A stretch of 64,000 bases of DNA from Thermoanaerobaculia bacterium (GTDB taxonomy: Bacteria; Acidobacteriota; Thermoanaerobaculia; Multivoradales; Multivoraceae): assembly GCA_022826745.1 (NCBI GenBank), contig JAJDUI010000008.1:267283-331282 (forward strand). The letters run 5' to 3'. The position numbers and the translations under genes are program-made. Shown here in pieces: positions 15,728-19,087 of this stretch (position 1 is its first letter; every line of letters starts with the position of its first letter). Below the pieces are notes generated by a model. It saw only the letters and a list, made by a program, of their open reading frames with translations. It made no database searches and was not told the origin of the DNA.

Positions 15728-19087
<3,360 letters not shown>

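Follow-up and report, generated by a model that had tools for sequence, protein, structure and literature searches.

A long-form, Type III-like restriction-modification system lies in the 64-kb stretch of DNA analyzed here (64,000 nucleotides, referred to as the window), and its mod gene carries a run of 17 cytosines (C17) that probably serves as a simple-sequence contingency switch. This reading is favored because relatives of the gene carry long pure repeats of two classes that recur at a shared linker, such repeats being seen nowhere outside mod in the DNA examined, and because tract length was widely polymorphic among near-identical strains, with in-frame and out-of-frame alleles mixed and the downstream frame maintained. 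During replication, slipped-strand mispairing in mononucleotide repeats leads to the gain or loss of units at high frequency.

A long-form Mod and its Res partner

The mod and res genes lie on the same strand of the window, with res starting 134 nt past the mod stop codon. The genes and the two methyltransferase motifs identified in Mod were located as follows.

15728 to 19087, minus strand, stop codon included: mod, GTG start, encoding a 1,119-aa long-form Type III-like N6-adenine DNA methyltransferase
17546 to 17557, minus strand: catalytic motif IV (DPPY, aa 511 to 514), read in the Mod translation
16694 to 16723, minus strand: AdoMet-binding motif I (FAGSGTTGHA, aa 789 to 798), aligned to EcoP15I Mod and further solved Mod cores
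12357 to 15593, minus strand: res, encoding a 1,078-aa SF2 helicase

Both starts agreed with public gene calls, that of mod in two public assemblies. PADLOC matched Mod to the MTase_III profile (PDLC03646; E value, 5.6e-203), and a Pfam match to N6_N4_Mtase (E value, 9.3e-17) covered aa 505 to 821. The order of motif IV, target-recognition region and motif I in Mod is that of the beta class, typical of Type III Mod proteins. Res matched the PADLOC profile REase_III (PDLC03654; E value, 9.5e-190) as well as Pfam ResIII, and contained the helicase motifs GSGKT (aa 174 to 178) and DEGH (aa 272 to 275). A putative C-terminal PD...(D/E)xK-like motif (HPDF at aa 970 and VDPKG at aa 988) was read from the sequence, without profile support. 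By sequence, mod and res are a Type III-like restriction-modification pair. Classical Type III systems hemimethylate an asymmetric site, and their ATP-dependent cleavage requires two inversely oriented sites.

Sequence matches in the PDB (Mod, 6k0w; Mbo45V, 7dsu; EcoP15I Mod, 4zcf) covered only the core of the protein, aa 482 to 822; relative to the solved Type III Mod proteins, the window Mod is therefore extended by ∼480 aa at its N terminus and by ∼300 aa at its C terminus. The long-form Mod family spans many phyla, with at least 8,000 scored protein matches and 584 pattern-matched genome stretches that encode a relative. Among GTDB representative genomes, a set that does not include the source genome, the closest matches were from Thermoanaerobaculia (59 to 66% amino acid identity). 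Family members were also found on plasmids of cultured bacteria, including Escherichia coli and Klebsiella, and no characterized member was found in this analysis. E. coli plasmid pEC316_2 (NZ_CP018955.1; locus L096, 1745 to 11497) exemplifies distant homologues (35% amino acid identity) that occur on IncF plasmids of this species and of Klebsiella as a four-gene block, with genes for an HTH regulator, an SNF2-related protein, a DNA methyltransferase and a DEAD/DEAH helicase. As the SNF2-related gene precedes these distant plasmid homologues, the wider Mod family may include systems other than classical Type III.

The C17 tract and the linker that holds it

A predicted linker holds the tract and joins the methyltransferase core to a C-terminal domain of predicted alpha/beta fold.

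16368 to 16384, minus strand: C17 in the coding sense and G17 on the plus strand, covering codons 902 to 906 (CCC) and positions 1 and 2 of codon 907 (CCG)
16292 to 16471, minus strand: predicted disordered, length-variable, Pro-rich linker, aa 873 to 932, holding the tract
15731 to 16291, minus strand: conserved C-terminal alpha/beta domain (predicted fold), aa 933 to 1119 (∼185 aa)

On the plus strand, the tract and its surroundings read aaattgtc-G17-tgagccgg, and codons 902 to 907 (five CCC and one CCG) are translated as PPPPPP in the 1,119-aa Mod. A preliminary description of this DNA had reported a 17-nt G/C run inside mod, encoding six prolines past motif I, and its coordinates were exact. 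The distance from the tract to the 3′ end of the ORF, given there as about 700 nt, was measured as 640 to 657 nt. The tract is situated at 81% of the mod ORF, past all catalytic motifs.

C17 occurs far above chance frequency in the window, where 1.4e−3 G/C runs of at least 17 nt would be expected under an independent-base model and 6.7e−5 under a first-order Markov model. It was the sole homopolymer longer than 7 nt in these 64 kb (68.4% G+C), the runner-up being 7 nt, and Tandem Repeats Finder identified no further simple repeat of note in the window. Rfam searches of the whole window returned no matches. When the mod-res region was scanned for promoters and terminators, scores were at the level of shuffled sequence, and neither an internal res promoter nor a conditional terminator was found there. 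Two other accounts of the run were considered and rejected. Proline codon bias does not explain its origin, as only ∼38% of the prolines in Mod and Res are encoded by CCC, and two kinds of repeat found in relatives, (AG)24 and poly-G (see below), do not encode polyproline. A G-quadruplex on the template strand was rejected as the main functional element, given that in two relatives (L033 and L087) it is the coding strand that has the G run, and a third (L044) has an (AG)n repeat.

An AlphaFold2 model of Mod aa 860 to 1119 was generated from 115 sequences. The pLDDT was below 50 at aa 860 to 892, 897 to 901, and 907 to 932, which is most of the linker, and mostly above 90 across the C-terminal domain (aa ∼934 to 1116). 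At the linker site, most family members carry a fixed segment of 24 aa, whereas the subclade of the window carries a Pro-rich insert of 26 to 63 aa. The tract can expand at aa 902 to 907 because the predicted disordered linker between domains tolerates insertions; no other kind of site could take up in-frame growth. Across the 115 aligned sequences, the C-terminal domain had 19 invariant columns. Pfam and NCBIfam searches using this domain identified no family, and comparison of its predicted structure with the PDB identified no meaningful relative.

Effect of tract length on the Mod reading frame

From frame arithmetic, tracts of 17 nt (also 14, 20, and so on) are in frame and give the 1,119-aa Mod. 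The other two length classes run into one of two stop codons.

16252 to 16254, minus strand: TAG stop that truncates Mod to 944 aa in tracts of the −1 type (C16, C19, and so on)
16080 to 16082, minus strand: TGA stop that truncates Mod to 1,002 aa in tracts of the +1 type (C18, C21, and so on)

The 1,002-aa truncated Mod is present in a public ENA re-assembly (P0001). That a slip of one base in either direction would truncate Mod had been foreseen; the loss, put at ∼235 residues, came to 212 native residues, which are replaced by an out-of-frame tail of 37 or 95 aa. Both truncated proteins retain the N-terminal domain, the target-recognition region, and every methyltransferase motif and are without the conserved C-terminal domain. 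In the C18-type frame, an internal ATG opens a 242-aa ORF containing the C-terminal domain, and no Shine-Dalgarno sequence was evident before it.

Tract length in the same sample and in relatives

The window was compared with an ENA re-assembly from the same BioSample (L001; 525,095 nt). Across 23,009 nt, there were no mismatches and one gap, located inside the tract. The L001 tract is CCCAC14 (18 nt), with mod out of frame and called as 1,002 aa, and the NCBI copy (P0241; 525,212-nt contig) is in frame. The preliminary description had named the tract as a classic place for error, and the single extra base in an otherwise identical re-assembly bears this out. As the two assemblies made from one sample differ at the very site of the tract, the on/off state cannot be taken from a metagenome-assembled genome (MAG) consensus.

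Relatives were examined for homologous tracts. Those termed close were syntenic, shared 94 to 97% nucleotide identity, and had identical flanks (...GGCTCA-Cn-GACAATTTTGTCGCAC). The alleles identified were as follows.

L088 and L089, close relatives: C10, out of frame
L002, close relative: C11, out of frame
L093 and L094, close relatives: C12, out of frame
L095, close relative: C16, in frame; assembly coverage 1x
L092, close relative: C21, in frame, with TAA at codon 99
L003, Thermoanaerobaculia chromosome: C21, in frame; linker site shared, other flanks
L043 and L090, Thermoanaerobaculia: C27 and C26, respectively, both out of frame; linker site shared, other flanks
L026, Vicinamibacteraceae: C13, out of frame; linker site shared, other flanks
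L084 and L085: C13, in frame; linker site shared, other flanks
L044, Vicinamibacteria MAG chromosome (OZ246946.1): (AG)24 at 6737 to 6784, out of frame; linker site shared with C17
L033, Longimicrobiales (OZ251577.1): G23 at 6937 to 6959, out of frame; ∼aa 1010, in the region of the C-terminal domain
L087, ERZ25070844 ctg10135: G22 at 2920 to 2941, in frame and encoding GGGGGGG; ∼aa 474, between the N-terminal domain and the core

Homologous tracts were found in at least 14 other independent assemblies, showing that the run is not an artifact of one assembly, and they were pure in all but one. The proposal of a slipped-strand frameshift switch, already made from the window sequence, is strengthened by the five further lengths (10, 11, 12, 16, and 21 nt) seen between the same flanks and by the C13, C21, C26/27, and (AG)24 repeats of remoter relatives. 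In-frame and out-of-frame alleles were present in roughly equal numbers. Across ∼1.02 Mb (the window and the fetched loci), all G/C runs of at least 10 nt fell inside mod and none in res, and (AG)24 was the sole long dinucleotide repeat, also inside mod. The presence of (AG)24 at the linker site of C17 suggests convergent evolution of the switch; as it is a dinucleotide repeat, proline codon choice fails as an explanation. A metagenome scan for the tract together with its flanks (GGCTCACCC...CCCGACAATTTTGTC) returned one chance match, at an unrelated locus (L083). P0032/L086 was considered as a further tract allele and rejected, as its frameshift lies in the tract region without a repeat.

Proposed mechanism of switching

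Established knowledge of mononucleotide repeats leads us to propose that slipped-strand mispairing at replication would often add cytosines to the tract or remove them. Lengths of 14, 17, 20 nt, and so on would yield the 1,119-aa Mod with a proline linker of varying length, and the other two length classes would lead to a stop 37 or 95 codons past the tract and a protein missing the C-terminal domain. Absence of this domain could disable or alter the Mod-Res complex, which is the candidate phenotype. A clonal population would then be a mix of cells with and without full restriction-modification activity, and such a mix could hedge phage defense against the uptake of foreign DNA and possibly affect methylation-dependent gene expression. 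The truncated Mod could be null for the whole system or could be an active methyltransferase uncoupled from Res. Switching of restriction and defense is at least as likely as putative phasevarion-type control of a regulon.

A more specific form of this proposal, which we hold to be doubtful, is that switching occurs at the level of domains. The out-of-frame Mod would remain an active methyltransferase, the domain it loses would be the coupler of Mod and Res, and the arrangement would have originated convergently at least four times. If so, restriction could be turned off with the genome still methylated, giving the host a safe and reversible opening to foreign DNA. The C18-type frame might supply the C-terminal domain separately, through the 242-aa ORF that starts at the internal ATG. 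The convergence would involve a single long-form Mod family of Acidobacteriota and Gemmatimonadota, whose inter-domain linkers hold poly-C, poly-G, and (AG)n repeats, with many of the hosts probably being sponge symbionts. The location of the putative switch between a catalytic core and a conserved domain provides a natural experiment on the role of that domain, which is directly testable in culture given that the long-form family occurs on E. coli and Klebsiella plasmids.

Selection on the C-terminal domain and decay of mod genes

Neutral expansion at a mutational hot spot is an alternative: mod would be a dispensable gene with an insertion-tolerant linker, and frameshifts there would merely inactivate an often-lost system, without selection for switching. 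We consider this distinctly unlikely. The half or so of tract alleles that are out of frame would fit such an account, as would the ordinary decay seen in the Mod family, which included a nonsense codon (L092), repeat-free frameshifts (L055, L082, and L086), an insertion (L077), and 5′-truncated remnants (L088 and L091). It is also in line with the many ORFs of 150 to 340 aa (in the series P0123 to P0222) that comprise the C-terminal domain only and are carried by long contigs of up to 6.1 Mb, which indicate that split or frameshifted mod genes are common in the family; the repeat check of such split ORFs covered P0121, P0124, and P0126.

In the out-of-frame alleles, however, the C-terminal frame was open for all 212 codons. 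The C-terminal dN/dS was 0.22 between the window and L002, 0.33 between the window and L088, and 0.35 between L002 and L088, both of which are out of frame. An open frame with ratios in this range indicates that the domain has been translated over evolutionary time, and its occurrence even between two out-of-frame alleles points to out-of-frame states that are recent or reversible rather than to old pseudogenes. Nor would neutrality readily account for long pure repeats that arose independently at three linker positions in two classes and that were absent elsewhere in ∼1 Mb, including res; in neutral tracts, interruptions would be expected.

The Mod proteins of the window, L002, and L092 shared 84 to 100% identity over approximately the first 450 residues and ∼90% at the C terminus, falling to 6 to 50% centrally. 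The variable central part of mod corresponds to 16727 to 17703 of the window in comparison with L002 and L092. This pattern suggests at least three specificity alleles at one chromosomal locus and recombinational exchange of the module for catalysis and recognition.

Individual loci showed further changes. The L092 allele combines an in-frame C21 tract with a nonsense change at mod codon 99 (locus positions ∼4755 to 4757), TAA in place of the CAA of the window, representing either a true inactivation or a consensus error of the long-read assembly. The insertion in L077 (4207 to 5397; Planctomycetota) is ∼1.2 kb and interrupts mod at aa 70. In L064 (1931 to 7998; Marinacidobacterium), two adjacent mod copies or fragments were identified.

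Assembly error and slippage at the RNA level

Long homopolymers are miscalled by short-read and long-read pipelines alike, and any single in-frame or out-of-frame call may therefore be off by about one base. Taken to its limit, this would make the linker a stable in-frame run of prolines whose length differences are sequencing or assembly errors, a very unlikely explanation of the data as a whole. It draws on the two same-strain pairs of assemblies, each of which differs by one tract base, and for which reads are needed to exclude homopolymer error. The window and L001 come from one sample and differ only in the tract, the CCCAC14 of L001 being itself implausible, and the near-identical L043 and L090 (2 mismatches in 8.4 kb) differ in their tracts by one C. 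The L095 assembly has a coverage of 1x, and the window data would be NovaSeq 2x150 reads if the KELL22-1 label denotes the study in PMC9531527. Going by the names alone, several contigs among the tract-bearing assemblies hint at long-read assemblers. Errors of one or two bases cannot produce a range of 10 to 27 nt across independent samples and platforms, and technical error cannot produce (AG)24, which is not a proline linker. Selection for polyproline would not require pure CCC codons, and any C17 is intrinsically prone to slippage, as is established (rates for 9-nt tracts are given in PMC5909438).

Transcriptional slippage is known at long homopolymers, and slippage of RNA polymerase or the ribosome on the C run, by which each allele would yield full-length and truncated Mod in a ratio set by tract length, would explain the conserved C-terminal frame of out-of-frame alleles; as a rival to the contingency switch it is extremely unlikely, and it is compatible with DNA-level switching, so that both may coexist.

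Comparison with known phase-variable systems

In a survey of REBASE, repeats were found in 662 of 3,805 mod genes (17.4%) using a 9-nt criterion for mononucleotide tracts, and at least 25 independent origins were inferred (Atack et al. 2018, PMC5909438). The C17 tract exceeds the 9 nt used there for tracts within an ORF, changes in its length lead to a premature stop, and its length differs within the lineage. The preliminary description had stressed a very different genomic background for such a gene. This holds for the host, an uncultured member of the Acidobacteriota, and overstated the novelty, as environmental species were already included in the survey. Like modH, modJ, and modL of Helicobacter pylori and the G[n] tract of Campylobacter modU, the window gene has a G/C mononucleotide repeat within the mod ORF whose length shifts the frame. 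Strain-to-strain variation in tract length is likewise shared with known phase-variable mod genes, as are conserved ends and a variable center, the known alleles having common 5′ and 3′ parts and a variable central region (PMC5909438). The window Mod differs from known phase-variable Type III proteins in its size (∼1,100 aa), with a large N-terminal and an extra C-terminal domain and only the core matching solved Mod structures. It also differs in the position of the repeat, which follows the catalytic motifs and leaves the whole enzyme core in the out-of-frame product, and in the hosts of its family, which are uncultured high-GC Acidobacteriota and Gemmatimonadota.

[quoted passage not shown] 2010; Zelewska et al. 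2016, PMC5320596). The window gene resembles these cases in having its tract at 81% of mod and three frames that give products of 1,119, 1,002, and 944 aa. Most cases described so far concern Neisseria and Helicobacter proteins that are secreted or at the surface and have short alternative tails, whereas here a whole conserved domain of 185 aa in a restriction-modification enzyme is added or lost. According to the account cited in PMC5320596, a homonucleotide tract in the hsdS gene of NgoAV yields a truncated yet functional subunit with altered properties (Adamczyk-Poplawska et al. 2011). As far as that account goes, the two share a homopolymer within a restriction-modification gene that leads to a truncated subunit, and they differ in that NgoAV hsdS encodes a Type I specificity subunit whose truncation alters the recognition sequence, whereas the window presents a candidate truncation of Mod.

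Dinucleotide repeats are known in Type III mod genes of Mycoplasma, namely (AG)12 in MmyCI (PMC3498834) and GA[n] in Mycoplasma bovis (PMC5909438). The (AG)24 repeat of L044 is similarly inside mod, at the linker that holds C17 in the window, but it belongs to another gene family and another host phylum than the Mycoplasma repeats and lies elsewhere in the gene. Nothing relevant emerged when the literature was searched for phase variation in Acidobacteria or metagenomes. Repeat-switched Type III mod genes and C-terminal phase variation are known, and the window gene, as a probable case of this kind, is set apart by the long-form family, the inter-domain site, the convergent linker repeats, and the hosts.

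Hosts and neighboring genes

To our knowledge, work on repeat-driven switching of Type III methyltransferases has centered almost entirely on pathogens with small genomes. Here the device recurs, apparently by convergence, in uncultured high-GC Acidobacteriota and Gemmatimonadota that share a large Mod family. The 90% sequence cluster of MreB assigns the window to the Acidobacteriota. The sample labels, as we read them, fit sponge-microbiome studies, and the window organism is probably a sponge-associated symbiont of the Acidobacteriota rather than free-living. Stochastic control of restriction or methylation is thus suggested for dense, phage-rich symbiont communities too. Tracts of this kind are also a pitfall for annotation, as they result in truncated or split mod gene calls (P0001, P0101, and P0121).

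A McrBC-type methylation-dependent restriction system was identified at 57279 to 60315 on the minus strand, comprising a McrC-like gene (Pfam McrBC; E value, 6.9e−53) and a McrB-like AAA_5 ATPase gene. This second defense system lies ∼40 kb from mod, and interplay with variable methylation is conceivable. Divergent from mod, a gene with HTH_3 and Peptidase_M78 (ImmA/IrrE-like) domains was found at 19699 to 20817 on the plus strand, preceded by a small ORF at 19359 to 19706 on the same strand. The small ORFs at the site divergent from mod in L002, L092, and L093 differ from those of the window. At 7034 to 9176, two adjacent paralogous genes encode SBP_bac_8 substrate-binding proteins of ABC transporters and share ∼81% nucleotide identity.
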